NCBI GenBank assembly: GCA_016184225.1 | Contig: JACPDA010000004.1 | Span: forward strand, 474,763-538,762 | Direction: 5' to 3' | Length of the DNA stretch: 64,000 nucleotides | From: Candidatus Daviesbacteria bacterium | Lineage (GTDB): Bacteria; Patescibacteriota; Microgenomatia; Daviesbacterales; UBA10151 | Shown here: one piece after another, positions 3-23,051 of the stretch | How positions within the stretch are numbered: position 1 is the stretch's first letter | How the letters are laid out: every line of letters begins with the position of its first letter | Program-made: the position numbers and the translations under genes | The notes under the pieces: model-generated | Databases searched by the model: none | What the model saw: only the letters and a program-made list of their open reading frames with translations | What the model was told of the DNA's origin: nothing

Positions 3-320
3 ATGGAGAAGATGGCCAAAAAACAGGTTATTGCGGTAACACCGATCGGCGAGCATTACCATCAGCTTGAGGACGGAAATATCTGGCAGCTGCATTTATG
101 TGCTTTTACCCCGGAGGATTTTGAAGCACGGGGTTATAAAATAAAAAAATACGGCTGGAAATGGCTGCTCGGCGATCACGGCATTGCCCATACTATAACA
201 AATGATCTGGTGAGAAAAGTGTTGTATGTTTTTAACTTCTTTGCAACACCAATTTACTATTATTTCCAGGGCAGCTGTGACTATATTTTTGTCGCCTACA
301 AGGATATGAATGAGAAGTAG
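3..320 (+). CDS. hypothetical protein (possibly 5' truncated at window edge)
   Basis: 105-aa ORF with no recognisable motif; ATG at nt 3 so the upstream extent is unknown. Ends 10 nt into the next gene. Confidence 0.35.
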   Translation: MEKMAKKQVIAVTPIGEHYHQLEDGNIWQLHLCAFTPEDFEARGYKIKKYGWKWLLGDHGIAHTITNDLVRKVLYVFNFFATPIYYYFQGSCDYIFVAYKDMNEK

Positions 321-3300
321 AGGGAATCTTTTAGCGCCAATCCTTTTTGCCGTTATTGCAGCAATTCTTGTCCTCTCCTGGTTTAGGGAGGGTTTTTTGT
401 ACGGCGGAGGCGACGTTGGTATTCCTTCCTATGATCCTAAAAGAATCCTTGACATTGTAAGGTTTGTCTGGTGGTCGTATTCAGCGCCGGGTACAACTGT
501 GCCACAGGGTTTGACTTCGGTTCCTTTCCAATTTGCACAATCCCTACTGGCCGGTTTGGGAATCCCCTATGTATATATCCAGGCGATTTTTTTCGGGATG
601 ATTATTTTCTTAATGGGTTATGGGATGAATTTGCTGGCCGGGACAATTTTTGGAAGAGAGAAAAAAGGTCTGGCCATACTGGCAGGACTTTTTTATCAGT
701 TTAATCCTTATATGATGATCGAAGTCTGGCACAGATTTATCCATAATACCTTTTTTCTGGCGGCTGCCCTGCCTTTTATTTTTATTTTTTGGACCAAATG
801 GATAAGAAACGGGCGGTATAGTTCACTTTTTACATTCCTTCTAATCAGTTTTTTAAGCTCTTATATGTTCGGGACATTAGCTTTTATTGCTGTGATTCTT
901 GTTATTTTGGCATGGATAGCGGTAGTAGAAATTTTGCTGCCCTGGAAGAATTTTACAAATTTTAAAAAGATCTCTACCCGATTCTTTTTTGGAGGGATTT
1001 TTTGGTTCTTAATTCAGGCATGGTGGATGCTCCCCTCTTTTGGGATTGCCCCGGCTCTTCTCTCTGCGCAGCATTCTATAGAAGGTAGCCTTTCAACACT
1101 TCTTTCGATATCCGAACAAACGATTATCCCATACAGCATCTTCGGCATCAATCCTTTCTATTTATATAGCAATGCTGATTTTGGGTCTTCTTATAACTTT
1201 ACATATTTGCGGTTGATTCCTTTTTTTGCTTTACTCTTTCTGATACCCGGTTTTATTAAATCCCTTATGAACAGGACATTATCAGCGTGGGGTCTACTTT
1301 TTATTTTGGGAATTTTTCTGGCAAAAGGCGCAGCTGCTCCTTTTGGCAATGCTTATCTTTTTGGCTTCAGCAATATTTTTTTGCTTGGGGTGCTCAGAAA
1401 TCCTTTTGAGAAGATGGGAATCCTGATTCCCTTTTCAGGTGCAATTTTGTTTTCTTTAGGTGTTAATTTCTATTTCCAAAATCCAAGATTAAGAAAGAAA
1501 AAGTACCTTGTTACCTTAGGAATTATCATTATTCTTACTTTGCTTTTTGGTGTATTTCAATGGCCGGTATGGGCAGGAAAATTGTTTGGCACCTCTCAAA
1601 AACCTGCCTATGTCCAAGTACCGACTACTTATATTGAAACGGATGAATATATCAGGAAGCAGAAAAAAAACGGCAATATTTTGCATTTGCCTTTAACTAC
1701 CGGCGAAGCAGCCACATATTACTGGGAGCATGGATTTAGCGGAGTTGAATCTTCACAGCTTTACTTTAATTCACTTCCTTCTATTTCCAGGGGATTTAAT
1801 ATCGGGTATGTAGATGATGCCTTGTCAGCCCTGTCAACTATATTTAGTCTGCCTGAAGCAAACGATAGCCGGATTATTGATTTGCTTAGGGCATTTAATG
1901 TCCGTTTTATTATTTTACACAAAGATATGGAATGGCGCGGAGGGTTACTGACTAATCCTGATGTTTTGGAGAGCACGCTAAACTCAAAAAATTTTCTTAA
2001 AAGGGAAAAAACTTTTGGGGCCCTCACAGTCTATCAACTGGATGAGAATAACTTTGCTCCCAAGCTCCGCCTTTCCCAGAGTATTCAATATATTAATCCG
2101 GGAAAAGAAAATTCATATTGGCCATGGCTTCTTAAGCAAGATTCGGGAGATCTTGTGAATCCTGCTGACAAAAAAACCGACAGCAATTTAACCAGTCAAA
2201 GCACAGGGTTGCTTGTTTTACCAGAGGTTGCATATTCTTATTCTGACCGCTCAGTTTCCACTAAGGATGCAATAGAAGTACTCGCGGTAACAAAAATTTT
2301 ACCAGATTCACCGCTGTATTTTCTTGTTTCAGCTAAAGAGAATATTAAACTTTTCAGCATGAATCAAACCGAGAAGTTTCAATACAGGATTACTTTAGCC
2401 GGTAAGAGACTGGCTGAAAGCTTCAGAATTAGAGAGAAAAAAATAGGTGCTAATATTGTGCCGCTCCTTCAAAGCTACCAGAAATCCTTGGTTCAATTGG
2501 GAGGACTTGAGGGAGGCGAACACTCTCTTGGTGCCATATTTGCCCGTCATATTTCCGTTTTGGATTATTTGATTTCAACTCTTGAAGGTAAAGAAAAAGA
2601 AGAGGCAATTGACAGCAAAAGAATGCTGACTGCCAAGATGAAGCTTGCCAATTTATTACCTGATTTTGAGATAAAAGAAAACCATGATTTACCTAAAACA
2701 AATCGGTTGATTTCTGCCTTCTTAGTTCCTTATGCAGGCACCTTTGAAGTTTTAATGGCTTTACAGAACGGGAGAAATCTTTATAAGGACGGTTTAATGA
2801 AAATTAATCTGCAGATTGATAATTCTGTCGTTAGTTTACCTGCTTCGCTTAAAGGATCTTTTATATCTTATGGCTATTTGGATTTAACGGCAGGATTGCA
2901 TGAACTAGGTTTTTATTCCGCTCTTTCAGAAAATATGTTTACTGATGCAGGCTTAGAGAAGGAGTTTGAACTTGTATCCCAAAAAGATAAGTCTTCTTTC
3001 TGGGATTTCGAGTTAGAACCAGTCACGGGTGGCGGATGGTATGAGCTTTCTTTTGAATCCTGGATTAAAGCCGGAGATAAGTTTAAAGTTCAACTGATTC
3101 AGGATTCAGATCCCCCTGACGACAGTAATGACGGCAGGTATATGTCCTTTAATAAAAAGTTCAGAAAGAATCCGCAGAAGAATGATTGGAAACGGTATGT
3201 AGAGAATATCAACATTAGACCCTCGACTACAAAAGCAAAAGTCCGTTTTCTCGTTGAATCGCAAGGCAAAACGTCTTTTAAGAATATAGAAATGAAAAGA

Positions 3301-3681
3301 GTGCTTAGAAACCCGCTTTTTCTAAAAACCGCTCTTAAGCAAGGTAAAGCAGAGGAGGGGGCTTTGGAATTTAAGCAAATAAGTCCTGTTCTTTATACCG
3401 GAAGAATCAGTACAATGGGTTCAAAGTTTTTAATATTTGCACAATCTTTTCATCCCGGGTGGGAATTAAAGCTTAATGACGGGACGAAAGAGATAACGCT
3501 TTCACCGAAATACATGGCTAATCTTTATAGCAATGCCTGGTATATTGAAAAGGGTGGGGATTATACTTTTACCCTGGAATTCATTCCGCAAAGGCTGGTT
3601 AAAACTGGAATTATAATTAGTCTGGCAGGTTGGTCGGTAGTTTGTGTGCTTTCGCTTTGGCAGAGATTCAGGAAAGCCTGA
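310..3681 (+). CDS. giant polytopic membrane protein, YfhO-like GT-C-type glycosyltransferase candidate (paralog 1)
   Basis: 1123 aa. N-terminal ~450 aa has many hydrophobic helices, with the N-terminal motif SWFREGFLYGGGDVG and the motif VLRNPFEK. C-terminus is FHPGWELKLNDG...NAWYIEKGGDYTFTLEFIPQRLV followed by a final TM helix, as I remember for YfhO-family C-termini. Paralogous to 4026-7310 and 7838-10438. Confidence 0.6.
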   Translation: MRSRGNLLAPILFAVIAAILVLSWFREGFLYGGGDVGIPSYDPKRILDIVRFVWWSYSAPGTTVPQGLTSVPFQFAQSLLAGLGIPYVYIQAIFFGMIIFLMGYGMNLLAGTIFGREKKGLAILAGLFYQFNPYMMIEVWHRFIHNTFFLAAALPFIFIFWTKWIRNGRYSSLFTFLLISFLSSYMFGTLAFIAVILVILAWIAVVEILLPWKNFTNFKKISTRFFFGGIFWFLIQAWWMLPSFGIAPALLSAQHSIEGSLSTLLSISEQTIIPYSIFGINPFYLYSNADFGSSYNFTYLRLIPFFALLFLIPGFIKSLMNRTLSAWGLLFILGIFLAKGAAAPFGNAYLFGFSNIFLLGVLRNPFEKMGILIPFSGAILFSLGVNFYFQNPRLRKKKYLVTLGIIIILTLLFGVFQWPVWAGKLFGTSQKPAYVQVPTTYIETDEYIRKQKKNGNILHLPLTTGEAATYYWEHGFSGVESSQLYFNSLPSISRGFNIGYVDDALSALSTIFSLPEANDSRIIDLLRAFNVRFIILHKDMEWRGGLLTNPDVLESTLNSKNFLKREKTFGALTVYQLDENNFAPKLRLSQSIQYINPGKENSYWPWLLKQDSGDLVNPADKKTDSNLTSQSTGLLVLPEVAYSYSDRSVSTKDAIEVLAVTKILPDSPLYFLVSAKENIKLFSMNQTEKFQYRITLAGKRLAESFRIREKKIGANIVPLLQSYQKSLVQLGGLEGGEHSLGAIFARHISVLDYLISTLEGKEKEEAIDSKRMLTAKMKLANLLPDFEIKENHDLPKTNRLISAFLVPYAGTFEVLMALQNGRNLYKDGLMKINLQIDNSVVSLPASLKGSFISYGYLDLTAGLHELGFYSALSENMFTDAGLEKEFELVSQKDKSSFWDFELEPVTGGGWYELSFESWIKAGDKFKVQLIQDSDPPDDSNDGRYMSFNKKFRKNPQKNDWKRYVENINIRPSTTKAKVRFLVESQGKTSFKNIEMKRVLRNPLFLKTALKQGKAEEGALEFKQISPVLYTGRISTMGSKFLIFAQSFHPGWELKLNDGTKEITLSPKYMANLYSNAWYIEKGGDYTFTLEFIPQRLVKTGIIISLAGWSVVCVLSLWQRFRKA

Positions 3682-3690
3682 CAAGTCTAT

Positions 3691-4023
3691 ATGAAGAAGG
3701 TTCTGAAATTTTTCATCATTTTAATATTGGTTTTACCCTTCATTTTTTTCTTTCATACGGGATTTCTGGTTGGTTTTACCGTTCCCAGTTTTCAGGCAGC
3801 CCTTTTTTCGGCGGTATTCGCTTCAGCATTAGTCTGGCCAGTCCTGAAAAGGTATGTTTTTCTGCTTTCGGCTATTTTGATAGTGGGTATAGCTCCGTTT
3901 TATATATTTAATATAATGGATTGGGCTAATATGCTAGGTAGCATGGGAATTGGATTTGTTTTATTGTTAGTATTAAGTTACCTGCCGGATTTTATTAAAC
4001 GAGGCTACGTAGAAAAATTGTAG
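3691..4023 (+). CDS. small 4-TM membrane protein (GtrA-like size/topology; function unknown)
   Basis: 110 aa with four hydrophobic segments. C-terminal SYLPDFIK resembles the C-terminal LTYLPKL of 7307-7615. Sits 2 nt upstream of the second giant membrane protein. Confidence 0.5.
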   Translation: MKKVLKFFIILILVLPFIFFFHTGFLVGFTVPSFQAALFSAVFASALVWPVLKRYVFLLSAILIVGIAPFYIFNIMDWANMLGSMGIGFVLLLVLSYLPDFIKRGYVEKL

Positions 4024-4025
4024 TT

Positions 4026-7000
4026 ATGAAAAACTATGCAAAGTATTTACTTCTGTTTACTTTAATAAGCGGATTATTAATCTTCTCCTGGTTTAGGTAT
4101 GGTCATTTATATGGAGGCGGAGATGTCGGTCTGCAAACATATAATCCTCAAAGAATGTTAGAAAATGCAAGGTTTGTTTGGTGGGAATCTGCGGGGCCGG
4201 GGGCAGCTTTGCCTCAAGGTTTATCCGCAATTCCTTTCCAATTTGGCCTTTATCTTTTACAGATGGTAGGATTTTCGCCGGTGGCCATGCAGGCGATTCT
4301 GTTTTTTGTACTGCTGACTTTAATGGGCTTTGGCATGTATCTTTTTGTATCTGCGTTTTTTCCGGGCTCTAAAAAATATCCGCTGGTTGCCGGACTTTTT
4401 TATATGTTTAATCCTTACATGATGATCCAGGTGTGGCACAGGTTTATCCATACCACCATTATTTTTGCAGCCGCCTTGCCCTTTTTAGCTATATTCTGGA
4501 CTAAGTGGATTCAGGAAGGGAAGGCAAGACATCTTTTGTTTTTCCTGCTTACTACCTTTTTGTCTGTTTATGCTTTCGGTACGTATGCTTTTATCCTGGC
4601 AGTCTGGGTTTTTTTATTTCTTCTGACTATTGTTGCCATAGTCCCCTGGCAGGGAAGAGGCCGGGCGGCAAAAGCGGGCTTCCGTTTTTTGTTTGCCTTT
4701 ATAGTTTGGATTTTAATCAATGCCTGGTGGATGATTCCGGTCAGCCAAATCAGCCCGGCAGTTTTATCCGAGCAACATAAAACAGAAGAGTCGTTGATGA
4801 CTTTAATTACTATCAGCGCCCAGGAAATCCTGCCTTACAGTTTACAGCTTGTAAATCCTTTCTATCTTATCAACCAGGCTGATTTCGGCAATCTTTACAA
4901 AAATCCGCTTTTTGAGTTGATACCATGGGTATTTATCTTCGTTATTTTCCTGGGCGTTATAAATTCAATGAAACAAAGAACCTTTGCTTTGTATGGTATT
5001 TTTTATTTATTGGCACTTTTTTTAGCTAAGGGCGCGGCTCCTCCCTTTGGCAAATTATTCATCTTCGCCTTTACCAATATATTTGCTTTGGGAGTTTTAA
5101 GGAATCCTTTTGAGAAGACCGGCTTGATTTTAGTTTTCTTTTCGACGGTGATGTTTGCACTGGGTTTGAAGATATTGTCAGAGAAATTTGTCAGATCTAA
5201 TAAACTATTGGTTGCAGCGATTGTTTTTTTGCTCTTTGTTTTTTCCTGGCCGATGATCTTAGGTAAAGTAATAGGCAGGGTAGATGCGCCGGCTTTTGTT
5301 GAAGTGCCGGAAAGTTATAAAGAGGCAGATCAATGGTTTTTGGAGCAAAGAAAGACAGGTATCCTGGACGGTAAGATTCTACATCTACCCTTAACCGGCG
5401 AAGAATCGATTCAATATAATTGGAAATGGGGTTACAACGGCTTAGAGCCGTCAGACACCTTCTTTACTGCTTATCCTTCTATTTCCCGGGGGTTTAATAT
5501 TCAAAGAATTGATGATGCTTTAAGCGGCTTAGCAGCATCATTTCAAGAGGAAGTGAAAAGTGAGATAATTTTAGGGTATTTGCAGGATTTTAACGTCAGG
5601 TTTATTGTTTTACATAAGGATGTAAACCAGGCAGGAGGAAATTTAGCCAATCCGGAAGATATAGAACAACTTCTTAATAATCTGGATTTCCTGGAAAGAC
5701 AACCGCAGTTCCAGGATTTAGTTATTTTCAAGTTAAAGGATCAATACTTTAGCCCGCGGATTACTATTGAGCATAATATTGATTTACTTTATCCCGGAAA
5801 GGAGAAACTTTCCCTTTGGACGGCGCTGGTTAAAGATCCAACTACCAAATATATCAGCTTAGTTAATAATAAAGACTTAGAAGTGCCTGAAATTAGCGGA
5901 TACAACCAGACGTTTATTTTTCCGAAGGGATCTTTCTTGTATGGAATATCTTCAGACAGCGTTTCTCCTCTTGAACGCTTAAAAAGTTCAGGGCCCTTTT
6001 TTAATCAAACCGGCATGATACAAAGCCTGAATCTCTCGGAAAAAATACTTGCCCTCTCGGCAACTCTTTTAAGCATATCGACAAATCCATCAGGAGATAT
6101 TAGTTCTTTAATGGATGACTATGACAAACAGCTAATGCAAATTCTTCCTAGAGGCATAGAGATTAACCGGTTCCAAATTAGCGGCCAGGAATCACTTTTG
6201 TCAGGCATCTTCAGAATTCATCTGAATACCCTGCAGGTTTTGATTCAACAACCGTCCTTTAATGAGAGCAACAGACAGAAAATTTCTGAAGTCAAAGAGA
6301 AATTGGAAAAATATCTGGTGAACTTAAATATAGCGCCGAAATACAATAATCAAACCGCAGAAGAAAGACAGGTTTTCAAGTTTCAACTTCCGGTTAAGAG
6401 TAACTACGAATTGTTAATGGTTAAACCCGAGACTGCTTCTTTGTTCCCGGACAAACTTGAAAAAAAAGAATTCTTTATAGAAAACGACCGTACTGTATTA
6501 AACGCTTCTGCTTCTCAAAATACAATGAATTTCGGGATGCTGGATTTAGAGGCAGGGGAATTTGAGGTCAGTTATCCGGTCGTATTTTCCGGTAATCTTG
6601 CTTCAGCTACCACCTATACTCTTGAATCCCCATATATTGAGGTGCCTTTAGCAAATATCCGGCCATCGGGAGCATATCGATTTTCCGGCCAGGTCAGGGT
6701 GCAAGGAGATTCCGGATTTTATATTTTATTGTATGAAAACCAAAACCCGCAGCCCAGTTTAAAGGAATTTCTACAGGCTAATCCTTTAGCGGGCTGGCAA
6801 ACATTCCAGCTGAATTTTGAGTCTAAACCTACCACAAAATCTGCCAAGCTGGTTATTGCCGGGGCTCAAAACAGTTTACAATCTAAGGTGTTCTTTAATG
6901 ATATAAAAGTACAGGAAGTTTTAAGAAATACTGTTTTTCTAAAGGGCAGTAGAGGTGAAAGTGTACCTGAGCCAACAGGAGAATCCGTCCGGTTTAGCAG

Positions 7001-7310
7001 ATTAAGTCCGGTTAGTTTCAAAGGAGAGATGCAGATATTAAGCCCCGGCTTTTTATTTTTCAAGGAAACGTTTCATCCGGGTTGGAAGTTGACCCTCAAG
7101 AATAAAGATGAGAGTAAAGTCATGCAAAAACATTTCTTAGGTAACCTGTACGCAAATGCCTGGTATATTGACCAGGCCGGTGAATATGAGTTTAAAATGG
7201 ATTTTGAGCCGCAAAGATATGTTTCTCTGGGAGTCTTGTTAACCGGTGTTGGATTTGCAGCAATAGCCGGTTATTGGCTATTAGGCAAAAACTTAAAAGT
7301 AAAAAAATGA
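4026..7310 (+). CDS. giant polytopic membrane protein, YfhO-like GT-C-type glycosyltransferase candidate (paralog 2)
   Basis: 1094 aa. Shares SWFRYGHLYGGGDVG, MFNPYMMIQVWHRFIH, GVLRNPFEKTG and the C-terminal FHPGWKLTLKN...NAWYIDQAGEYEFKMDFEPQRYV motif with paralog 1. Confidence 0.6.
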   Translation: MKNYAKYLLLFTLISGLLIFSWFRYGHLYGGGDVGLQTYNPQRMLENARFVWWESAGPGAALPQGLSAIPFQFGLYLLQMVGFSPVAMQAILFFVLLTLMGFGMYLFVSAFFPGSKKYPLVAGLFYMFNPYMMIQVWHRFIHTTIIFAAALPFLAIFWTKWIQEGKARHLLFFLLTTFLSVYAFGTYAFILAVWVFLFLLTIVAIVPWQGRGRAAKAGFRFLFAFIVWILINAWWMIPVSQISPAVLSEQHKTEESLMTLITISAQEILPYSLQLVNPFYLINQADFGNLYKNPLFELIPWVFIFVIFLGVINSMKQRTFALYGIFYLLALFLAKGAAPPFGKLFIFAFTNIFALGVLRNPFEKTGLILVFFSTVMFALGLKILSEKFVRSNKLLVAAIVFLLFVFSWPMILGKVIGRVDAPAFVEVPESYKEADQWFLEQRKTGILDGKILHLPLTGEESIQYNWKWGYNGLEPSDTFFTAYPSISRGFNIQRIDDALSGLAASFQEEVKSEIILGYLQDFNVRFIVLHKDVNQAGGNLANPEDIEQLLNNLDFLERQPQFQDLVIFKLKDQYFSPRITIEHNIDLLYPGKEKLSLWTALVKDPTTKYISLVNNKDLEVPEISGYNQTFIFPKGSFLYGISSDSVSPLERLKSSGPFFNQTGMIQSLNLSEKILALSATLLSISTNPSGDISSLMDDYDKQLMQILPRGIEINRFQISGQESLLSGIFRIHLNTLQVLIQQPSFNESNRQKISEVKEKLEKYLVNLNIAPKYNNQTAEERQVFKFQLPVKSNYELLMVKPETASLFPDKLEKKEFFIENDRTVLNASASQNTMNFGMLDLEAGEFEVSYPVVFSGNLASATTYTLESPYIEVPLANIRPSGAYRFSGQVRVQGDSGFYILLYENQNPQPSLKEFLQANPLAGWQTFQLNFESKPTTKSAKLVIAGAQNSLQSKVFFNDIKVQEVLRNTVFLKGSRGESVPEPTGESVRFSRLSPVSFKGEMQILSPGFLFFKETFHPGWKLTLKNKDESKVMQKHFLGNLYANAWYIDQAGEYEFKMDFEPQRYVSLGVLLTGVGFAAIAGYWLLGKNLKVKK

Positions 7311-7615
7311 CTAAAAAGATAATATTCATGTTAATAATTTTTGTCAGCTCTTTCCTTATATTTAATCTGGTGGAATTTGAGTTGCTTAACCAATCTATGA
7401 ATAAATATTTTCAATCATTGATTTTTAGCACGGTTTTGATCATTTCAATTTTTCAACCCAAACTTAGAACGAGATTATTTTATGTATTCTTTTTCCTTTT
7501 ATTTGCGGCAGCATTACTTTATTCTCTGGGCCAGTTATCCCTGTCAAACTCCCTGGCCAGTATAGCTGTCGGCATGGTAACCATTGTTTCCCTGACTTAT
7601 TTACCTAAACTATGA
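7307..7615 (+). CDS. small 4-TM membrane protein, paralog of 3691-4023
   Basis: ORF track begins at 7274, but the internal ATG at 7307 gives an ATGA overlap with the stop of the upstream gene (MTKKIIFMLIIF...). Four hydrophobic segments; C-terminal LTYLPKL. Confidence 0.5.
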   Translation: MTKKIIFMLIIFVSSFLIFNLVEFELLNQSMNKYFQSLIFSTVLIISIFQPKLRTRLFYVFFFLLFAAALLYSLGQLSLSNSLASIAVGMVTIVSLTYLPKL

Positions 7616-7837
7616 CTGCTTTCCCCAAATTTTCTTTAGCCTTGTTGTTTGTATCGCTTTTGCTGATGCTTACAAATCATCAGGGGGCAGCGCAAACAGT
7701 ACTTCAAATATTTTTCTGGGTAATAGTAATTAATGTTTTCTTATATATCTATAGCTTAAGGAGATAATACGATCAAGTTCTTAATCTTTGTTTTAATTTT
7801 TTTAAGTTTCTGGATCTTCTGGCTGCCGGGACCGCGG

Positions 7838-10438
7838 GTGGCAGCGGATTTCCACCTGGCGGAAAAGTCGGTCCAACTGACAAATCTTTTCCCCTGGGTT
7901 TGGAGAGAGACAGGAGTAGCAGATGGCTTGGGTGAGTATTATCCACTTTCTTTATGGGCTCAGCCCTTACATACATTTTTTGGTCTCCTGGCACTTGGTA
8001 CTATTCCGTTTGAAATCCAGGCAAAAATATTCGGGCTAGTAATTTTAATCTTAGGGTTTTGGGGAATATGGAGATTACTGGATAAGTTTGACCTTGATAA
8101 TGCTGCTAAAAGTGTGGGAAGTATATTTTTCTTATTGAACAGCTTTTTCTTATTACTCTTTGACGGAGGACAACTATCTTTAGCCTTGGCATATGGAATT
8201 TTACCAACGGTTATTCTTTACTTCTTAAAGATTACGGAAACAGATTTATGGAGGGATAAATTTAAGTTGGCTTTTTGGACATTAATTTTATCCATAGCCG
8301 ATATCCGCATTATTTATTTAAGCTTATTAATTGTTTTTATTTTTATTGCTTTCAGGATCCTTACAGGTTTGAAAAGCCCTTTAATCTTTTTTAGAAGATT
8401 ACTATTAGGTTTTAGTATTACCTCTATAGTTTTGATCGGTTTTCATATGTATTGGTTATTACCTACTTTAATCTCCAAACAAATACAGCTTCCTCAGACT
8501 TATGAAAGAACTTCTCAAGTTACTTTTTTAAGCTTTTCCTCTTTGTCCCACTCGCTATTGTTACAACAGCCTCACTGGCCACAAAACGTTTTTGGCCGGT
8601 TAGCCAGTCCCAGGCCTGAATTTGTATTTATTCCGTTGTTAGCATTTTCGGTGCTGATCTTAGCAAAAAGAAATACCACGGTAGCTTTTTGGTTACTAAT
8701 TTCTATTATTAGTATTTTTCTTAGTAAAGGATCTAATGAACCCTTTGGGCAAATGTACTCTTTTCTATTTACCTACGTGCCTGGATTTTCGCTGTTTAGG
8801 GATCCTTCCAAATTTTATTTTCTGACTAGTCTTTCTTATAGTATTCTGCTTGCTTTTTTAGTCCAAGCATTATCAAAAGTCAAGTTCCTTCCAGTCCTAT
8901 TTATTTTATACTTTATTTTTTTGGCAAGGCCTGTATTTTTAGGTCAAATGAGCGGTTTATTTTCCTTTCCTCTTTTTCAAAAAGAATTCGATAGTCTTGC
9001 CGAAAAAATTAAAAATGATGTAAATTTTTCAAGAGTGTTTTGGATACCTGCGACTGCACCAATGGGTTATACCAGTACTTCCCACCCTACGGCTCCTGCC
9101 AACAGGCTTTCGCAAAAGCGGCCTTTTGCTGTGGGAACAAAAGGCACATATGAAACGTTCAATTTTTTAAGAGAGGCTCCTTATATGGGGCAGATTTTCG
9201 ATGTAGCGGGGATTGATTATATTGTTTATCCATATTTGGATCCAAGAAGAGATAATATGCATAAGGATAATATTAGATACTTTTATACTTTTTTGGACCA
9301 ATTATCAAATCGACCCTGGTTATCTAAGATAGAAAATTCTCCAATTCCGCTGCTTAAAACAAAACAACATCAGGAAAAATTCTTTATTACTCCGGATGTA
9401 TGGTGGGTGATTGGGTCGGACAGTATCTATAATGAGGCAACAAAGTCTGCCCAACTTAAATTGTCTAAAAATGCTTTAATCTTTGCTGAAGAGAAAGCAG
9501 GGTTAGGGAGAAGAATTGATGAAATTCCGGAAGCTAAAATTATACTTAACAATAAAACAGGTTTAGATTTAACTGCGAGTTTTATAGATTCAACCCATTT
9601 AGTTTTTCCTGCTAAGAGTTTGGGGTTTGGACCTGACCAATCAGGCTGGTGGAAAAGGGAAACAGCTGATTTGGTTTGGTGGAGGAGCTTTTTGCAGGAA
9701 AAATACGGAATTGACAATCAGGATTTTGATTTAGGGGGAGGGTGGGCAATAGGGGAGGGAAATTTGAAATTTGCTCTGCCGATGGCAGTTTCTTTTGAAA
9801 CAATTAGAAATTTGAAATTAGAGAAAAATAAGGTTTTACTTGCGAGGGTGATGGAGAGCTCAAGGAGCGGAAGTCTTAAATTCTATCAGGATAACCAGTT
9901 AGTTGGAGAATTGTTAACCAAAATTGACGGTGAGACTAATGTCAGGTGGTTTGAAGTAGGTGAGTTAAGCTCTGACAAGGAATTAGAGATTATCTCAGAG
10001 GGAGATATTAATGTGGTGAATGTTTTAGCAGTTTTAGATAAAGACAAATGGATTACTTATCAGACTAGGGCTGGACAACTCAAGGGAAGAATTGTGAATT
10101 TTGATGAAAAAAATGCATTAAGAGATACCAGTCCAGAAGTTACTTATAAAAAAATAAATCCCACGAAATACAAAGTTAAAATTGAAGGCTTAACCGCTCC
10201 GTCACTGTTGATTTTCTCCCAGAATTATGATCAACTTTGGAAGATGAATAACCAGACTCCCCTGCCGGTGTACAGTTTACTGAATGGGTTTAGAGTTGAG
10301 AAAGACGGAGAGTATATTGTTGAATTTAAGCCGCAAAAATATGTTTATCCCGGTTTAGTTATTAGTGGAATAACAGTAACGGTTTTACTGGTACTCTTAA
10401 TAAGATTGCCACCCTTCAACAAGCTCAGGGTAAACTAG
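7838..10438 (+). CDS. giant polytopic membrane protein, YfhO-like paralog 3 (start uncertain; may begin at 7772)
   Basis: 866 aa from a GTG at 7838. Shares the motifs LSKGSNEPFG...FRDPSKF and a C-terminal ...GFRVEKDGEYIVEFKPQKYVYPG... plus terminal TM with paralogs 1 and 2. The in-frame upstream sequence encodes a TM helix with no ATG (see findings). Confidence 0.55.
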   Translation: MAADFHLAEKSVQLTNLFPWVWRETGVADGLGEYYPLSLWAQPLHTFFGLLALGTIPFEIQAKIFGLVILILGFWGIWRLLDKFDLDNAAKSVGSIFFLLNSFFLLLFDGGQLSLALAYGILPTVILYFLKITETDLWRDKFKLAFWTLILSIADIRIIYLSLLIVFIFIAFRILTGLKSPLIFFRRLLLGFSITSIVLIGFHMYWLLPTLISKQIQLPQTYERTSQVTFLSFSSLSHSLLLQQPHWPQNVFGRLASPRPEFVFIPLLAFSVLILAKRNTTVAFWLLISIISIFLSKGSNEPFGQMYSFLFTYVPGFSLFRDPSKFYFLTSLSYSILLAFLVQALSKVKFLPVLFILYFIFLARPVFLGQMSGLFSFPLFQKEFDSLAEKIKNDVNFSRVFWIPATAPMGYTSTSHPTAPANRLSQKRPFAVGTKGTYETFNFLREAPYMGQIFDVAGIDYIVYPYLDPRRDNMHKDNIRYFYTFLDQLSNRPWLSKIENSPIPLLKTKQHQEKFFITPDVWWVIGSDSIYNEATKSAQLKLSKNALIFAEEKAGLGRRIDEIPEAKIILNNKTGLDLTASFIDSTHLVFPAKSLGFGPDQSGWWKRETADLVWWRSFLQEKYGIDNQDFDLGGGWAIGEGNLKFALPMAVSFETIRNLKLEKNKVLLARVMESSRSGSLKFYQDNQLVGELLTKIDGETNVRWFEVGELSSDKELEIISEGDINVVNVLAVLDKDKWITYQTRAGQLKGRIVNFDEKNALRDTSPEVTYKKINPTKYKVKIEGLTAPSLLIFSQNYDQLWKMNNQTPLPVYSLLNGFRVEKDGEYIVEFKPQKYVYPGLVISGITVTVLLVLLIRLPPFNKLRVN

Positions 10439-10478
10439 CTCGCAGACTCGCTCCTCGCAATGACAGGTAGAATTTAGC

Positions 10479-10484
10479 TATAAT
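10479..10484 (+). promoter_or_regulatory. perfect TATAAT -10 box 6 nt upstream of the Wzx ATG (leaderless-type arrangement)
   Basis: TATAAT-gacaat-ATG, with no SD. Confidence 0.4.
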
Positions 10485-10490
10485 GACAAT

Positions 10491-11759
10491 ATGCTAAAGT
10501 CGATTCTCAGAACCGCCACATTTAAGCAATCCCAAATTACTATCACCGGGACTTTAATTAATGGCACCTTGGGCGCCTTCTTTTATATAATTCTAGCTAG
10601 GTTTTTGGGGCCTTCTGATTTTGGGATCTTGACAGTTTCTCTTACTACTCTTGTCTTGATAGCCGATGTTGCTGACATAGGAACAAATACAGGGCTCATT
10701 AGATTTGTTTCTTCCCACTTAAGCTTTGATAAAGATAAAGCCTATCGTTTTTTAAAGTTAAGCCTGGAGATTAAGCTGATTGCGTGGGCAGTGGCTTTTG
10801 TAGTGGTGTATCTGTTGGCCCCCTTCTTGGCAACTCAGGTTTTCCAAAAGCCTGATTTGATTTTGCCGCTTCGGCTGGTGTCATTCGGAATAGGAACAGC
10901 ACTTCTTTTTTCATTTGCAACTTCTGCCCTGCAGGCTTTTCAGAGATATTTTCTTTGGAGCACGGTTAATATTTTAACTAACTCCTTAAGGCTTATTTTA
11001 ATATTAGTTCTAGGTTACTACAGCCTGCTTAATATAGGAAGCAGTCTTCTTGTCTACATATTGCTGCCTTTTTTTGGTTTTTTTGTGACGCTTTTTATTC
11101 TTCCTACCAGGAAGTTTATTTTAAGTAAGGAGGAGTTTTCCTTGTCAGGCGAACTGTTTAAATATAATATTCCGGTGGCAATTTTTACCATAGTTGCTGC
11201 TTTTTCTGCCCGGTTAGATACTTACCTCAATGCAATCCTACTTTCTTCCCGGGAAGTGGGAATATACGGGGCAGCAAATCAGTTAATCCAGATTATGCCG
11301 CAACTTGTTTCGGCATTAGGTTTGGTATCAGCGCCGAAATTTGCCTCTTTTCAAAAAATTGACCAGATGCTTATATATTTTAAGAAATTCCAGCTTTTTG
11401 TTCTGGGACTTTGTATTTTGGGATTATTGGCAATTCCCCTGGCCATATATTTTATTCCGCTGCTTCTTGGATCGGCGTATACTGAAGCAATAATTCCTTT
11501 TGTGATTTTATTCTTGGGGTACCTTATTTTTCTTTTCTCTATTCCCGTGCACCACAGCATAATTTTTTATTTTGGCCGACCAGATGTTTTTATTTGGGTT
11601 TCGCTGGGTCATCTCTTGATAATCGGAGGCTTAGGTTATGTAATGATTTCAAATTTTGGAATAATTGGAGCTGCAGTAACAGTACTTTTTGGTATGTTGT
11701 TTAATTTCCTCTTTCCCTTAGGGTGGCTGCTTAATCGATTAAAAAGGAGTAGGGTATGA
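10491..11759 (+). CDS. polysaccharide/oligosaccharide flippase, Wzx-like (MOP superfamily)
   Basis: 422 aa with ~12 hydrophobic helices. The N-terminal pattern (TGTLINGTLGAFFYIILARFLGPSDFGIL) is typical of the Polysacc_synt / Wzx family. Confidence 0.65.
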   Translation: MLKSILRTATFKQSQITITGTLINGTLGAFFYIILARFLGPSDFGILTVSLTTLVLIADVADIGTNTGLIRFVSSHLSFDKDKAYRFLKLSLEIKLIAWAVAFVVVYLLAPFLATQVFQKPDLILPLRLVSFGIGTALLFSFATSALQAFQRYFLWSTVNILTNSLRLILILVLGYYSLLNIGSSLLVYILLPFFGFFVTLFILPTRKFILSKEEFSLSGELFKYNIPVAIFTIVAAFSARLDTYLNAILLSSREVGIYGAANQLIQIMPQLVSALGLVSAPKFASFQKIDQMLIYFKKFQLFVLGLCILGLLAIPLAIYFIPLLLGSAYTEAIIPFVILFLGYLIFLFSIPVHHSIIFYFGRPDVFIWVSLGHLLIIGGLGYVMISNFGIIGAAVTVLFGMLFNFLFPLGWLLNRLKRSRV

Positions 11760-12526
11760 AGATTTGGGCAAATTGCATTGTGCATAATGAAGAAAACTTT
11801 ATCTGGTTTGCCATTATGAGTGTGGTGGACTATGTGGATAAAATATTAGTTTGGGATACTGGTTCTACGGATAAAACTGTAGAGATAATTGAGGAGATAA
11901 GAAAAATAAAGGGGGACAAGATAGAATTCCGGAAGGTAGGTGTTGTAGACAGGCACGAATTTACTAAAATGCGCCAAATGATGCTTGATGAATCTAAGTG
12001 TGATTGGATTTTAATTTTAGATGGGGATGAGATTTGGTGGGAGGACTCAATAAAGCAAGTAGTAGAAGCAATAAATAAGGATAAAAATATAGATGCCATA
12101 GTTGTTCCTTTTTTTACTATGGTGGGAGATGTTTATCATTACCAATCTGAAGATGCCGGAAAATATGAGCTCGCCGGGAGGAAAGGCCATCTGACTATCA
12201 GGGCGATTAACCGCCGAATTCCGAGTTTGCATTTAGCTGGTCCTTACGGAAAAGAAGGTTTTATGGATAAAGAAGAAAGACTGATTCAGGATATGAGTCT
12301 TGAGAAGTTAATGTTTTTGGATGCGCCCTTTTTGCATCTGACACACCTTAAAAGAAGCTCAAAAGACGGACACAATAAATCCAAATACGATTTAGGGATA
12401 AAATTTAATAAACATTTTCCTGAAGTGTTTTATCTTAAAAGACCCGCTGGAATTCCTTCACCATGGCAAGAAAGATCTAAACTGTATGAAATTTTAAGCT
12501 TAGGCAAACGGATATTAAAATCATGA
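11756..12526 (+). CDS. glycosyltransferase family 2-like protein
   Basis: N-terminal CIVHNEE...LVWDTGSTDKT and a later DGDE motif resemble the GT2 fold (DxD-type). ATGA overlap with the upstream gene. Confidence 0.5.
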   Translation: MKIWANCIVHNEENFIWFAIMSVVDYVDKILVWDTGSTDKTVEIIEEIRKIKGDKIEFRKVGVVDRHEFTKMRQMMLDESKCDWILILDGDEIWWEDSIKQVVEAINKDKNIDAIVVPFFTMVGDVYHYQSEDAGKYELAGRKGHLTIRAINRRIPSLHLAGPYGKEGFMDKEERLIQDMSLEKLMFLDAPFLHLTHLKRSSKDGHNKSKYDLGIKFNKHFPEVFYLKRPAGIPSPWQERSKLYEILSLGKRILKS

Positions 12527-13179
12527 GTACATTAAAAAAATTCTACGAAAAATTCTGGTCTGAAGACCGTGGCGAATTCGGGAGTTATATCAGGAATTCA
12601 GAGCTGCCTGATTTTTTTAATAAGGGAGAATTTATTTTGGATGTCGGATGCGGAGATGGGGTAGTTGGGGCATTCCTACAGCAGCGAGCCGGGGTAAAAG
12701 TAGCGGGGATAGATATTTCTGAGGAGGCTGTAAGGAAAGCAAAAAATAAAGGTATTGATGCCAGGGTATGCAACAGTGAACAAAAATTTCCTTTCCCGGA
12801 TAACTTATTCGATAAAGTCTTTTGGGGTGATAACATTGAGCACTTGTTTGATCCTGCCAGGACAATAAAGGAAATTAGGAGAGTTTTAAAAAAGGAAGGA
12901 AGATTAATACTATCCTGCCCGAATATGGGATACTGGCGATACAGAATCCATTATTTTTTAAGCGGTAGTTTGCCTGATACGGAATGGACAGGTCTTGCTC
13001 CTTGGGAATGGTCGCATATACGTTTTTTTAATCTGGGAATCTTAAGAGAATTTCTCAAAAGGAACGGATTTAGTAAAATAACAAGGACTAGCGGGGTGTC
13101 TGAACGCCGACTGGATAAACCTTTTCTGGAGTTTAACCCTGCGCTTTTCGGAATGATACTAATATTGGAGGCAGCATGA
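12523..13179 (+). CDS. class I SAM-dependent methyltransferase
   Basis: Motif I LDVGCGDGVVG, then an acidic residue after beta-2 (GIDISEEAV) and a post-I motif LILSCPN. Confidence 0.75.
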   Translation: MSTLKKFYEKFWSEDRGEFGSYIRNSELPDFFNKGEFILDVGCGDGVVGAFLQQRAGVKVAGIDISEEAVRKAKNKGIDARVCNSEQKFPFPDNLFDKVFWGDNIEHLFDPARTIKEIRRVLKKEGRLILSCPNMGYWRYRIHYFLSGSLPDTEWTGLAPWEWSHIRFFNLGILREFLKRNGFSKITRTSGVSERRLDKPFLEFNPALFGMILILEAA

Positions 13180-13856
13180 AAAATGCGATTGTTACTTTAG
13201 AAAGCATGAGTCAGGCGGTTTGGTATAACCAGTGGATTCTTAGTAAGTTTGTCAGTTACCTTGGGGGGAATATTTTGGAAGTTGGATGCGGTATTGGAAA
13301 TTTTACACAGAATCTTTCTCTGTATGGGAAAGTTTGGGCGATAGACATTAATAAAGAATATATAAATGATATTAAAAAAGAACAGGGGGATAGAGTTCAG
13401 GTTGGTTTGGGTGATATTGAAAAAGGAAAATATTTTTTTGAAAATAAGATGTTTGACAATATTGTCTGTCTTAATGTTTTGGAACACATAAAAGACGATA
13501 ATGCTGCCTTAATAAATCTGTTTAATCTTTTGAAGCCAGGAGGTAAATTGATTTTGCTTGTACCTTCCCACAAATTTTTATACGGAAGCATTGATAAAGC
13601 TATAGATCATTTCAGGAGATATTCAAAAGGGAAAATTACGGCTCTCCTTAAGGAGATAGGTTTTAAAATAATTGAGTCAAGAAGATTTAATTTTCTGGGA
13701 GGGCTTGGGTGGTTTATTGCAGGACGGATTCTTAAAGCAAATGCTGTCGGCGGAGGAAATATTTCTGTCTTTAACAGGATAGCACCCTTTATTCTGCCTT
13801 TGGAATTTTTTGAGCCTCCTTTAGGAACATCTATTTTAGTCATTGCTGAAAGATAA
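13176..13856 (+). CDS. class I SAM-dependent methyltransferase
   Basis: Motif I ILEVGCGIGNFT, then DNIVCLNVLEHI and KPGGKLILLVP (Methyltransf_11/23-like). Confidence 0.75.
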   Translation: MKNAIVTLESMSQAVWYNQWILSKFVSYLGGNILEVGCGIGNFTQNLSLYGKVWAIDINKEYINDIKKEQGDRVQVGLGDIEKGKYFFENKMFDNIVCLNVLEHIKDDNAALINLFNLLKPGGKLILLVPSHKFLYGSIDKAIDHFRRYSKGKITALLKEIGFKIIESRRFNFLGGLGWFIAGRILKANAVGGGNISVFNRIAPFILPLEFFEPPLGTSILVIAER

Positions 13857-13866
13857 ATTTAATCAG

Positions 13867-14568
13867 ATGAAACTTTCCATAATCATTCCGGTATATAACG
13901 AAGAAAAAACAGTGGCCGAAGTTTTAAGGAGGATTGGCGAAGTGGAATTGCAGAATTCTTTACAGAAAGAAATTATAATTGTCAGTGATGGATCAACAGA
14001 TCATACTAATAAAATCTTAAGTAGGTATAAGGGTATTAAATTTTATAAACATTCAAAAAATTTAGGTAAAGGTGCTGCGCTCCAAACGGGTTTTCGAAAT
14101 TCGACAGGGGATTTTCTTGTTATCCAGGATGCAGACTTGGAATATCATCCCAGGGATTATGCCAGGCTGCTTAAGCCTCTTATTAGAAATGAGGCGGATG
14201 TAGTTTACGGCTCCAGGTTAATGAATTATCCCTTGAGGTTATGGGGAAGAAGGAAAACGGTTTTACCCCTGCATTTGCTGGCCAACAAGTTTCTGACACT
14301 GTTTACAAACCTGTTTTACCATAGCAACTTGACTGATATGGAAACAGGCTATAAGGTTTTCAGGAAAAGTGTGATTGATCAATTAAAGATTAAATCTAAC
14401 AAGTTTGATTTTGAGGCGGAGGTTACGGCAAAAATTCTAAAAAGAAAAATTCCAATAGTAGAAGTACCGATTATTGTGAGACCGCGGACTTATAAAGAAG
14501 GAAAAAAGATTGGGTGGAAAGATGGCTTTTCAGCCATATGGACATTAATTAAATACAGATTTATTTAA
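13867..14568 (+). CDS. GT2 polyprenyl-phosphate sugar synthase (DPM1/GtrB/CsbB-like)
   Basis: MKLSIIIPVYNEE...IIVSDGSTD...GKGAALQTGF...VIQDADLEY is the classic GT2_2 (dolichol-phosphate-mannose synthase-like) signature. The ORF track starts at 13843; the internal ATG at 13867 avoids overlap. Confidence 0.8.
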   Translation: MKLSIIIPVYNEEKTVAEVLRRIGEVELQNSLQKEIIIVSDGSTDHTNKILSRYKGIKFYKHSKNLGKGAALQTGFRNSTGDFLVIQDADLEYHPRDYARLLKPLIRNEADVVYGSRLMNYPLRLWGRRKTVLPLHLLANKFLTLFTNLFYHSNLTDMETGYKVFRKSVIDQLKIKSNKFDFEAEVTAKILKRKIPIVEVPIIVRPRTYKEGKKIGWKDGFSAIWTLIKYRFI

Positions 14569-19110: not shown

Positions 19111-19120
19111 AATATATTTT

Positions 19121-21626: not shown

Positions 21627-21676
21627 GGACCTGCTTCGCTCGCAGAACCTTGCCTTTTTGAAAGGAGTTCAAAAAC

Positions 21677-22819: not shown

Positions 22820-23037
22820 ACTGCATTATTTTTAGAGACTTGACACATGGAAGTTGTACCAGGATTAAGAACGGTACCATTTTTACGCTATTGCGAAATT
22901 TTGGTACCATCCATTTTTTTAAATTACCGCGATAAGTTGCTTCTACCAAGTTTTCCCCATATAATCGCTCGTGACTACATCGCTTCGCTTCTTGTAAGCA
23001 AAGCTTGCGATAACTTTGTTATCTAAACGCGTTGCGT

Positions 23038-23043: not shown

Positions 23044-23051
23044 TACTTTAT

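Follow-up and report, generated by a model that had tools for sequence, protein, structure and literature searches.

A locus in a tiny-genome Daviesbacteria host (CPR) raises the question of what three giant membrane proteins, encoded in tandem together with small membrane proteins and family 2 glycosyltransferases (GT2), do for the cell. The three large genes lie at 310-3681, 4026-7310 and 7838(7772)-10438 of the window, by which we mean the whole stretch of 64,000 nucleotides analyzed here. Region 310-14568 is the core of an operon conserved in Daviesbacteria and Microgenomates. Its genes are closely packed, with 9, 2 and 4 nt between neighbors at three junctions and an ATGA overlap at two others. 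The genes are as follows.

3..320, plus strand: 3' end of a GT2-methyltransferase fusion gene (~532 aa when whole), cut by the start of the window
310..3681, plus strand: G1, AftD-like GT-C membrane glycosyltransferase, 1123 aa
3691..4023, plus strand: S1, 110-aa 4-TM protein of a new family, partner of G1
4026..7310, plus strand: G2, full-length G1 paralog, 1094 aa
7307..7615, plus strand: S2, 102-aa 4-TM S1 paralog, partner of G2
7612..7767, plus strand: S3, unannotated 51-aa 2-TM micro-protein, translationally coupled to G3
7772..10438, plus strand: G3, divergent GT-C of the same superfamily, ~888 aa, probable ATC start
10491..11759, plus strand: MOP/Wzx-type flippase (Polysacc_synt; PF01943 70.7 bits, PF13440 54.6 bits)
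11756..12526, plus strand: GT2a, soluble family-2 glycosyltransferase (PF00535 56.9 bits)
12523..13179, plus strand: SAM-dependent methyltransferase 1 (matches Methyltransf_11, _25, _23 and MetW)
13176..13856, plus strand: SAM-dependent methyltransferase 2 (matches Methyltransf_11, _23, _12 and NodS)
13843/13867..14568, plus strand: GT2b, catalytic domain of the DPMS/GtrB/ArnC class of polyprenyl-phosphate sugar synthases, without TM (PF00535 123 bits)

In contigs of the same organism (L022), a 532-aa GT2 and SAM-methyltransferase fusion is encoded immediately 5' of G1, and the fusion gene holds the same place in L001 and L002.

G1 and G2 are AftD-like GT-C enzymes

G1 and G2 are paralogs along their full length, identical at 37% of 1125 aligned columns (E = 0). 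Eleven TM helices make up the N-terminal part of G1, which also has a soluble GT-C alpha/beta domain, a helical bundle (DUF5667), CBM-like beta-sandwiches and a single TM helix at the C-terminus. The cytoplasmic loops of G1 are rich in K/R, while its external loops hold most of the invariant residues, which in the structural model are predicted to sit mainly at the outer membrane face. The proposal of an earlier note on this DNA that the giants form a GT-C arm is borne out by this fold and by the position of these residues.

The same note had tentatively assigned the giants to the YfhO family, which none of them matched. Instead, the sole GT-C family matched by the giants was PF11847 (GT-C_AftD), with 22.9 bits for G1 and 24.1 bits for G2 (residues 38-562), just under the gathering threshold. 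Precomputed PF11847 matches exist for many homologs, and shorter G-like proteins of related loci exceed the cutoff (35 and 47 bits). When PDB chains were searched with the G1 sequence and with a G1/G2 profile, no sequence-level match was found; one G-like relative matched AftD chains only, at a nonsignificant E of 0.24. The giants are GT-C-fold enzymes, AftD-like rather than YfhO-like.

In the mycobacterial cell-wall arabinofuranosyltransferase AftD (PF11847, formerly DUF3367; PDB 6W98 and 6WBX), 11 TMs are followed by soluble domains and TM12, and TM13-16 form a further four-helix bundle that is peculiar to AftD (bioRxiv 10.1101/2019.12.22.885152). The giants are only 14% identical to it and carry the inserted DUF5667 bundle. 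Without a TM13-16 bundle they also have no ACP-binding site in cis; the gene directly 3' of them specifies a separate 4-TM protein. Their host is a CPR bacterium without known arabinan, and the window shows no DPA pathway.

G3 is an anciently diverged GT-C

The three giants had been described as tandem paralogs sharing YGGGDVG and NPFEK. While this holds for G1 and G2, to which YGGGDVG and RNPFEK are confined among the three, G3 reads PRVAADFH and RDPSKF at the equivalent sites and is clearly related to them at the profile level. Alignment of the G3 family with the G1/G2 family by hhalign gave a probability of 99.9% (E 8e-33, 556 columns) and placed D26 of G3 opposite D35 of G1, an Asp in external loop 1. 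G3 is homologous to the N-terminal ~600 residues of G1/G2-type giants. A BLAST comparison of G3 with the other giants detected local similarity only (E 2e-7 to 7e-9), including a C-terminal beta-sandwich and TM resembling theirs, and G3 likewise ends in one C-terminal TM helix. The region thought to be triplicated is a duplicated G+S unit plus a third GT-C that diverged anciently.

The start of G3 is most likely ATC 7772, since a start at GTG 7838, which we rejected, would remove the conserved first TM helix. An AAGGAG sequence is located at 7758-7763, 8 nt before this ATC. The lengths first given for G1 and G2 (1123 and 1094 aa) stand, whereas the 866 aa given for G3 become ~888 aa.

A Pfam search of G3 gave no match, and its only curated-family match was a weak one to NCBIfam MmpA (44.8 bits, where the cutoff is 210; residues 263-365 only). 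MmpA (Rv0226c / NCgl2761), an AftD-N-terminal-like polytopic membrane protein, has the AftD N-terminal TM domain in common with AftD and lacks any recognised catalytic motif (PMC8698533). By analogy with MmpA of corynebacteria, G3 or the whole trio could be AftD-like but noncatalytic, acting as a scaffold or in transport. We regard this as very unlikely: G3 retains the invariant external-loop-1 Asp (D26) and K319, R343 and K347, the counterparts of K339, R363 and K368, and the MmpA match is far under threshold. MmpA proteins are ~474-543 aa, occur in Corynebacterineae only and act in trehalose-lipid transport, whereas G3, at 888 aa, has a large ectodomain, and its candidate catalytic residues are conserved.

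The small proteins belong to a new family

S1 and S2, encoded between the giants, were confirmed as real four-helix membrane proteins of ~105 aa that are paralogous to each other (30% identity, E 8e-7) and members of one family. The AF2 model of S1 (pLDDT 91.6) predicts four TM helices and a short C-terminal helix, and the conserved C-terminal tail of S1 reads YLPxxIKKGYVEKL. S2 starts at ATG 7307, overlapping the G2 stop as ATGA, and has 102 aa; compared with its L002 ortholog, an in-frame deletion of 9 codons removes the conserved tail. This truncated form is also present in P0153, L022 and L023. In addition to these two genes, which the earlier note had recognized, there is a third small gene that it had missed, S3, which was left uncalled by gene callers and carries a conserved NHxG(F/A)A loop. 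S3 was seen in 13 loci including this window, directly 5' of G3 in at least 11, and it stays with G3 in L020, where G3 occupies another place in the cluster.

When 1.84 billion representatives were scanned with an HMM, only a narrow and closed S family of 92 clusters emerged. The family counts 33-92 members, all of ~110 aa, and no G-S fusion proteins were found among these representatives. S1 had no match in Pfam, no S member had a significant Pfam family, and DUF2304 was absent from the 25 best-represented families listed for S members. Judged by sequence, S is a previously undescribed protein family.

The identity first suggested for the small proteins was GtrA, in a decoration system of the GtrA/GtrB/GtrC (CsbB-GtcA-YfhO) type in which S would be lipid-linked-monosaccharide flippases and the giants YfhO-family transferases. 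GtrA-type flippases are small, with 3-4 TMs, and one of them, L. lactis CflA, serves several GT-Cs (PMC8035078). The size and the modeled TM count of S fit this type, the operon holds a DPMS/GtrB-class GT2, and the giants are GT-C enzymes. However, a GtrA (PF04138) search of 34 S-family members gave zero matches even at E <= 10, the HMM scan led to the closed 92-cluster family only, and no giant matches YfhO. Moreover, the number of S proteins follows the number of giants and S co-diverges with its giant, in contrast to CflA, and the module already has a MOP flippase. We consider it unlikely that S are GtrA-type flippases.

Each S gene is coupled to the giant gene upstream of it

S directly follows almost all full-length giants in the ~20 loci examined, and all 26 scored full-length giants (loci and window), single-giant loci included, have S immediately 3'. 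In L019 and L020, two divergent giants are followed by hydrophobic proteins of 106-117 aa, while the second giant in L009, L014 and L015 has no 4-TM S gene. Comparative synteny assigns each S to the giant 5' of it, not to the giant it precedes, as had been thought.

First- and second-position S proteins mostly fall in separate clades across genomes, and the G and S distance matrices are correlated (Mantel r = 0.68, with none of 5000 permutations as high). G and S were duplicated as a unit. Since such a mirror-tree correlation is expected for any adjacent co-inherited gene pair, it is no proof of G-S contact.

The named homologs come from Daviesbacteria, Microgenomates or Patescibacteria, save one partial Nanoarchaeota-labelled protein and "uncultured Gammaproteobacteria" MAGs, both of which we take to be mislabeled. 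The arrangement is lineage-restricted, in agreement with the CPR restriction suggested before.

GT2b and the sugar-donor genes

The closest PDB relative of GT2b was Pyrococcus DPMS (5mlz, E 1.4e-18), followed by ArnC and GtrB, and its top NCBIfam matches were AglJ (116 bits) and PpgS (83 bits), each under its own cutoff. The gene caller gives 233 aa, and ATG 13867 is a likelier start than 13843. The class assignment as a polyprenyl-phosphate sugar synthase made earlier is upheld, although GtrB and CsbB, to which GT2b had been likened, have C-terminal TM helices that it lacks. GT2b is kept at the module end in L013, L017 and L020 and is present wherever that operon end is visible. The position of GT2a, whose closest PDB relatives GmaR and SunS are both weak, is conserved across loci. 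Of the 14 other distinct loci with a complete G3, 12 have the flippase directly 3' of it.

Small membrane partners of lipid-linked-sugar enzymes have precedents: DPM2/DPM3 act with human DPM1 and Rv3632 with PpgS, and the GtrA-like Rv3789 adjoins aftA/embC. GacI likewise requires the 3-TM GacJ (PMC8035078). S and/or S3 could on these precedents be membrane anchors or activators of GT2b, which has no TM segment and resembles PpgS, DPMS and AglJ; the gene order in L018 (G, S, GT2b-like gene) would fit. We find this highly doubtful, as each S gene is coupled to a GT-C giant rather than to the synthase, which is encoded ~6 kb downstream, and two or three small proteins would share one GT2b while the S number tracks the giant number. 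No sequence relationship of S to GacJ, DPM2/DPM3 or Rv3789 was detected, and neither a significant Pfam family nor, among the 25 best-represented families, DUF2304 links S to such partners.

The window also encodes at least three PMT_2-type GT-Cs, and one of these, instead of the giants, could be the real client of GT2b.

Model for the operon

The presence of GT-C giants and a conserved DPM1/GtrB-class GT2 in the same operon supports the extracytoplasmic glycosylation function proposed earlier. With AftD-like giants that each have their own small membrane-protein gene in a conserved operon, the locus probably encodes machinery building a surface sugar polymer outside the cell. We favor, with some reserve, an operon for the assembly or decoration of a cell-surface glycan at the outer membrane face by three AftD-type GT-Cs with small membrane partners. 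In this model, TM-less GT2b would charge polyprenyl phosphate with a sugar on the cytoplasmic side of the membrane, and the methyltransferases and GT2a would modify or prime lipid-linked units in the cytoplasm. The adjoining MOP-family flippase and/or another protein would flip the lipid-linked sugar, and flipping of lipid-P-sugars by MOP-type flippases has precedents in the GT136 and GacK systems (PMC11127046, PMC8035078). G1, G2 and G3 would then pass this putative donor to the growing polymer as acceptor. The active site would consist of the external-loop-1 Asp (D35 in G1, D26 in G3) with the invariant external-loop residues K339 and R363-N-P-x-E-K368, and the CBM-like beta-sandwich ectodomains, tethered via the C-terminal TM helix, may hold the polymer.

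The giants could also be oligosaccharyltransferase- or ligase-like, moving a lipid-PP-oligosaccharide en bloc to protein (S-layer, pilin) or cell wall after its preassembly, for which the genes further downstream (Bac_transf, GT4, GT2, Wzx, Wzy_C) would be responsible; this we think improbable.

In the glycan-assembly model, each giant would work with the product of its translationally coupled small gene, S1 and S2 after G1 and G2 and S3 before G3, and the most likely role of S is that of a membrane subunit devoted to the giant it is paired with. On architectural grounds, S may stand in for the TM13-16 bundle of AftD, because the layout of G matches that of AftD exactly from TM1-11 through the ectodomain to TM12 but has no TM13-16, and S brings four helices with a matching N-in/C-in topology. 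Since fatty-acid synthesis is often missing in CPR bacteria, the ACP binding of AftD TM13-16 is unlikely to have a counterpart here.

Like the GtrA/B/C, CsbB-GtcA-YfhO and GT136 pentofuranose systems, the operon combines a polyprenyl-P-sugar synthase of the GT-A type with GT-Cs and a candidate flippase. It differs from them in that AftD-type giants take the place of YfhO, PMT_2 or GtrC as its GT-Cs; its small 4-TM proteins are non-GtrA by sequence and duplicated with each GT-C; its synthase has no TM helices; and three methyltransferase domains belong to the module. If our reading is true, the locus would follow a known type of extracytoplasmic glycosylation logic, but with AftD-type giants and an undescribed S family duplicated together with them.

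Organization of the gene array

At positions 310-14568 of the window, the genes on the plus strand lie head to tail with almost no intergenic space. The array encodes three giant membrane glycosyltransferases (G1, G2 and G3), two small four-helix membrane proteins of one family (S1 and S2), a two-helix micro-protein that had gone unnoticed before (S3) and two family-2 glycosyltransferases (GT2a and GT2b). The S1 protein is 100% identical to a database protein annotated from Candidatus Daviesbacteria.

Genes at the start of the window
3-320, +, tail of a GT2-methyltransferase fusion, cut by the window start
310-3681, +, G1, 1123 aa
3691-4023, +, S1, 110 aa
4026-7310, +, G2, 1094 aa
7307-7615, +, S2, 102 aa
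7612-7767, +, S3, 51 aa
7772-10438, +, G3, about 888 aa
10491-11759, +, MOP/Wzx-type flippase, 422 aa
11756-12526, +, GT2a, 256 aa
12523-13179, +, methyltransferase 1, 218 aa
13176-13856, +, methyltransferase 2, 226 aa
13843 or 13867-14568, +, GT2b, 241 or 233 aa

Relationship of the giants to AftD

The earlier note had described the giants as YfhO-like. Using hmmscan against Pfam-A (E <= 0.1), we found that none of G1, G2 and G3 matched YfhO (PF09586), and membership in that family was rejected. The sole GT-C family matched was GT-C_AftD (PF11847), with G1 scoring 22.9 and G2 24.1 bits, both below the threshold of 26; G3 did not match it in the same search. G1 also matched DUF5667, which covered a helical insert. 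PF11847 was precomputed in many of 219 database homologs (34-75% identity), including ones at 35-50% identity, and the NCBI name of one homolog is alpha-(1->3)-arabinofuranosyltransferase family protein. Shorter G-like relatives, whose genes in related loci lie a few kb upstream of G1, matched PF11847 above threshold, at 35 and 47 bits in loci L004 and L005. When the PDB was searched with one of these relatives, only AftD chains were returned, at a non-significant E of 0.24, in an alignment that shows a common motif just after the last N-terminal transmembrane (TM) helix. The PDB sequence searches with G1, the G1/G2 profile, G3 and the S profile returned nothing usable.

AftD consists of 11 TM helices, a soluble GT-C domain, three carbohydrate-binding modules (CBMs) plus a beta-sandwich, and TM12; it also has TM13-16, a four-helix bundle unique to AftD that packs on TM8/TM9 and binds acyl carrier protein (bioRxiv 10.1101/2019.12.22.885152). 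The AlphaFold2 model of G1, built from a 51-sequence alignment, reached a pLDDT of 87.7 and a pTM of 0.83 and has an AftD-like three-dimensional architecture, with an 11-TM GT-C core, a soluble GT-C domain, CBMs and TM12. The topology of G1, derived from the model helices, hydropathy and the positive-inside rule, starts with 11 N-terminal TM helices; an ectodomain of some 670 residues follows, and a single TM helix closes the C-terminus. G1 thus shares with AftD the layout of 11 TM helices, a soluble and CBM-type ectodomain and TM12, whereas the TM13-16 bundle is absent from G1, G2 and G3, which end after the single C-terminal TM helix. No DPA-pathway genes were found among the scanned ORFs of the window.

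The further matches listed for the G1 model were STT3B (20.5), AftA (17.3), AglB, ALG12, Pmt4, PglB and ArnT. The giants could in principle be en-bloc transferases of the oligosaccharyltransferase (OST) type, a reading that we consider improbable.

Both features sought as marks of a GT-C fold were found: within the first external loop, a conserved acidic residue, and at the outer face, a conserved region presumed to be the active site. The acidic residue is D35 in G1 (D26 in G3) and is conserved in at least 90% of the 51 G1/G2 homologs. K339, R363, N364, P365, E367 and K368 are invariant among these homologs and lie in external loops. Most of the invariant residues are placed by the topology at external loops or outer helix ends, among them also W54, P60, G61, H141, R142, Q254, H255, H459, E466, Y470 and W472.

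Divergence of G3 and its probable start

G1 and G2 are paralogous over their full length (37% identity, 1125 columns). G3, which had been counted as the third tandem paralog, gave only local BLAST matches to G1 and G2 (E 2e-7 to 7e-9), confined to the KG..PFG...R.P.K region and to the C-terminal beta-sandwich with its TM helix. When a profile of 14 G3 orthologs was aligned with the profile of 51 G1/G2 homologs, the homology became clear (probability 99.9%, E 8e-33, 556 columns), and the alignment spanned the entire TM core and the first soluble domain. The motifs attributed to all three giants, YGGGDVG and (R)NPFEK, are present in G1 and G2 only; the equivalents in G3 are RVAADFH and RDPSKF. 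D26 of G3 is invariant and is aligned with D35 of G1. That G3 might be a non-catalytic protein like MmpA (PMC8698533) is in our estimate very unlikely.

The mechanical ORF start of G3, GTG 7838, falls inside a conserved PRVAAD motif, and the first TM helix would be lost; there is no in-frame ATG, GTG or TTG upstream of it. A perfect AAGGAG at 7758-7763 is followed, 8 nt on, by ATC 7772. The G3 ortholog of locus L002 (75% identical) has AAGGAG, 8 nt and ATT, and the more distant ortholog of L001 has ATG at the position equivalent to ATC 7772. On the basis of these comparisons, ATC 7772 is the likely start of G3, used either as a rare Ile start codon or by termination-reinitiation after S3.

S3 (7612-7767) was missed by gene callers. 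It overlaps the S2 stop as ATGA, and its own stop, TAA 7765-7767, lies 4 nt before the G3 ATC, a spacing that fits termination-reinitiation coupling of S3 and G3. Members of the S3 family are 50-57 aa long, and their two TM helices form a hairpin whose NHxG(F/A)A loop contains an invariant His. S3 immediately precedes G3 in at least 11 loci, one of them L020, where G3 has changed its place. By hhalign, S3 was aligned with the TM3-TM4 half of S at a probability of 41.8%, a suggestive match only, as both profiles are short and hydrophobic.

A closed family of small membrane proteins

The earlier note's view that the two small proteins are paralogous four-helix membrane proteins was borne out: S1 and S2 have 30% identity (E 8e-7), and the S1 model (pLDDT 91.6) has four TM helices and a short C-terminal helix. 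Conserved in the family are (E/N)xGF in an outer loop, P..(K/R)(K/R) in an inner loop, (S/A)N..GS.G.G at the start of TM4 and a basic tail, YLPxLIKKGY(V/I)EK(L/F). S2, whose start codon ATG 7307 overlaps the stop of G2 as ATGA, is without nine codons (EIIKKGFVE) of this tail (window 7590-7615). Since the identical in-frame deletion is found in the independent assemblies P0153, L022 (a contig of the same organism) and L023, the shortening is not an artefact of the window.

Using a profile built from 27 synteny-derived S sequences, we found 33 proteins in a collection of 5.8 billion sequences, none with a precomputed Pfam domain. The profile HMM found 92 proteins among 1.84 billion cluster representatives, almost all of about 110 aa; the maximum length is 139 aa, and the shorter members appear to be fragments. 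In none of the 92 was S part of a larger protein, and the match list had no tail of remoter relatives.

The S proteins had also been called GtrA-like, and in size and in having four TM helices (S1, 110 aa) the likeness holds. However, no Pfam family was matched at significance by 34 S members, and GtrA (PF04138) was absent from the 25 most-matched families reported for them at E <= 10. Membership in GtrA was therefore rejected at the sequence level for this closed family of about 110-aa proteins: by the tests run, S is GtrA-sized but not a GtrA-family member. A function of S as a flippase analogous to GtrA would agree with the size and helix number, but we regard it as unlikely.

Pairing of giants and small proteins across genomes

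About 20 loci were compared: 19 were found by scanning 185,579 species genomes, and two fetched directly proved identical to contigs already among the 19. All loci examined were from Daviesbacteria, Microgenomates or Patescibacteria. Several of the 'binchicken' MAG records (L003, L004, L008, L013-L016 and L018-L021) are titled 'uncultured Gammaproteobacteria', yet they carry the Patescibacteria-type operon; these titles look like placeholder mislabels, since the G1 of one such MAG is 75% identical to that of the window.

The recurring order was (GT2-methyltransferase), G1, S, G2, S, (S3), G3, flippase, GT2a, methyltransferase, (methyltransferase), GT2b. An S gene lay directly after each of 26 full-length giants scored; the exceptions to the pairing were the second giants of L009, L014 and L015. 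In the single-giant loci L017-L020 the S gene was downstream of the giant, so the pairs are G1-S1 and G2-S2, and not S1-G2 and S2-G3 as supposed when each small protein was assigned to the giant that it precedes. The pairwise distances of the giants and of their adjacent S proteins were correlated (Mantel r = 0.68, reached in 0 of 5000 permutations), which establishes co-inheritance without proving physical contact. The S proteins after first-position and second-position giants formed largely separate clusters across genomes, indicating a block duplication of the G+S unit that predates the split of these lineages.

In L019 and L020, divergent extra giants are followed by hydrophobic proteins of 106-117 aa (L019:9616-9969 and L020:5402-5722), which were not recognised as S by phmmer with S1 and S2 (E <= 1e-3) and may form a second, remoter S-like family. 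A few kb before G1, many loci also carry a fourth, shorter AftD-like GT-C of 600-900 aa, with PF11847 scores of 35-47 bits, for example L004:2971-5688, L005:1728-3866 and L006:3393-5534; a small TM partner gene was sought beside these and none was found. In this organism, a 632-aa protein that matches no Pfam family (L022:906-2804) and a FAD amine-oxidase-like gene in divergent orientation are found at the equivalent upstream position.

GT2b and the wider glycan cluster

GT2b matched PF00535 at 123 bits, and its best PDB relative was the Pyrococcus Dol-P-Man synthase 5mlz (E 1.4e-18, residues 6-222, the whole catalytic domain), followed by ArnC and GtrB. The top curated matches, AglJ (TIGR04182, 116 bits, cutoff 325) and PpgS (NF058614, 83 bits, cutoff 370), were both far below the equivalog cutoff. 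The catalytic domain thus agrees with the DPM1/GtrB/CsbB type proposed before. However, GT2b has no hydrophobic segment and ends right after the catalytic domain, while GtrB and CsbB have C-terminal TM anchor helices; DPM1, GacI and PpgS are TM-less like GT2b. The absence of a TM segment would suit a role of S or S3 as the anchor of GT2b, as GacJ, DPM2/3 and Rv3632 are for their enzymes, but we give this arrangement little credence. GT2a and the GT2-methyltransferase fusion are not DPMS-like.

The glycan cluster runs on for about 18 kb (window 14570-33000, plus strand) with GT4s, another GT2 and the genes listed here. Because PMT_2 GT-Cs lie downstream, GT2b could have these as its clients in addition to, or in place of, the giants.

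Further genes of the window
16245-17696, 17656-19110 and 25623-27095, +, three clear PMT_2-type GT-Cs
20142-21626, +, multi-TM protein of a size like the PMT_2 genes, without a Pfam match
24201-25622, +, Wzy_C protein
30475-31104, +, Bac_transf phosphoglycosyl transferase
31105-32988, +, DUF4012 protein
within 14570-33000, +, hexapeptide acyltransferase
within 33016-44902, +, dcw block: MraW, PBP transpeptidase, Mur ligases, MurB-like, MurA, MraY

In the region 33016-44902 (plus strand), which adjoins the downstream end of the glycan cluster, RecO and a class II aminoacyl-tRNA synthetase precede this dcw-type peptidoglycan block. The GC skew changes sign near 57-58 kb, with a cumulative skew peak there (window about 56000-64000); the large ORFs also change to the minus strand, including one of 1060 aa at 59935-63117, and the GC content falls to about 0.32 after 60 kb.

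Proposed function and significance

We propose that the module would assemble or decorate a glycan at the outward face of the membrane. A polyprenyl-phosphate sugar, the putative donor, would be made by GT2b and flipped by the MOP flippase, which has precedents (PMC11127046; GacK, PMC8035078), or by another protein. G1, G2 and G3 would then pass the sugar to a polymer, the putative acceptor, held by their CBM-like ectodomains. Of this scheme, the present results establish fold, homology, topology, synteny and co-duplication, while donor, acceptor and flippase are inferences.

We favour the reading that S is a dedicated membrane subunit of its cognate giant and the architectural counterpart of AftD TM13-16, since a giant with TM1-12 and an S protein with four TM helices in matching topology (N-in/C-in) together make up the AftD plan. 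The tight gene coupling and the S copy number, which tracks that of the giants, also point to a subunit. The Foldseek search of the S model against the PDB returned only matches at E > 6, so the correspondence with TM13-16 has no direct structural support; nor was a specific sequence match or a fused G+S intermediate found.

More specifically, and only tentatively, G+S may be a two-polypeptide AftD, with S, a new family of four-helix subunits, docked on the GT-C core at the TM13-16 site and S3 as a half-size version for G3. The three G holoenzymes would then play the role that the Aft/Emb enzymes have for arabinan, polymerising or branching a CPR-specific, possibly methylated cell-wall glycan.

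AftD-family annotations outside Actinobacteria are already present in databases, and multi-component lipid-linked glycosylation is known. Our literature search turned up no paper on enzymes of the AftD kind from CPR bacteria. Three features appear to be undescribed, as no paper on them came to light either: the strict pairing and joint duplication of G and S; the closed S family together with the S3 micro-protein; and the architecture of an AftD minus TM13-16 plus a separate four-TM protein. The results also correct a tempting misannotation, since the proteins here are neither YfhO nor GtrA proteins.

To our knowledge, the envelopes of CPR/Patescibacteria are biochemically almost unknown. The genome appears to be small, as the contigs with these genes reach at most about 0.77 Mb, and the spending of about 10 kb on three GT-Cs, within a glycan cluster of about 33 kb beside dcw genes, suggests a major surface polymer. 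S and S3 are two unannotated families of small membrane proteins and candidate accessory factors of GT-C enzymes. With the four-helix bundle of AftD apparently replaced by a separately encoded, co-duplicating four-TM protein, the array would offer a natural 'split' AftD-type system outside Actinobacteria, which could show what the bundle does. If the two-polypeptide reading is true, giant GT-C enzymes in general would have accessory membrane subunits that have so far been overlooked.
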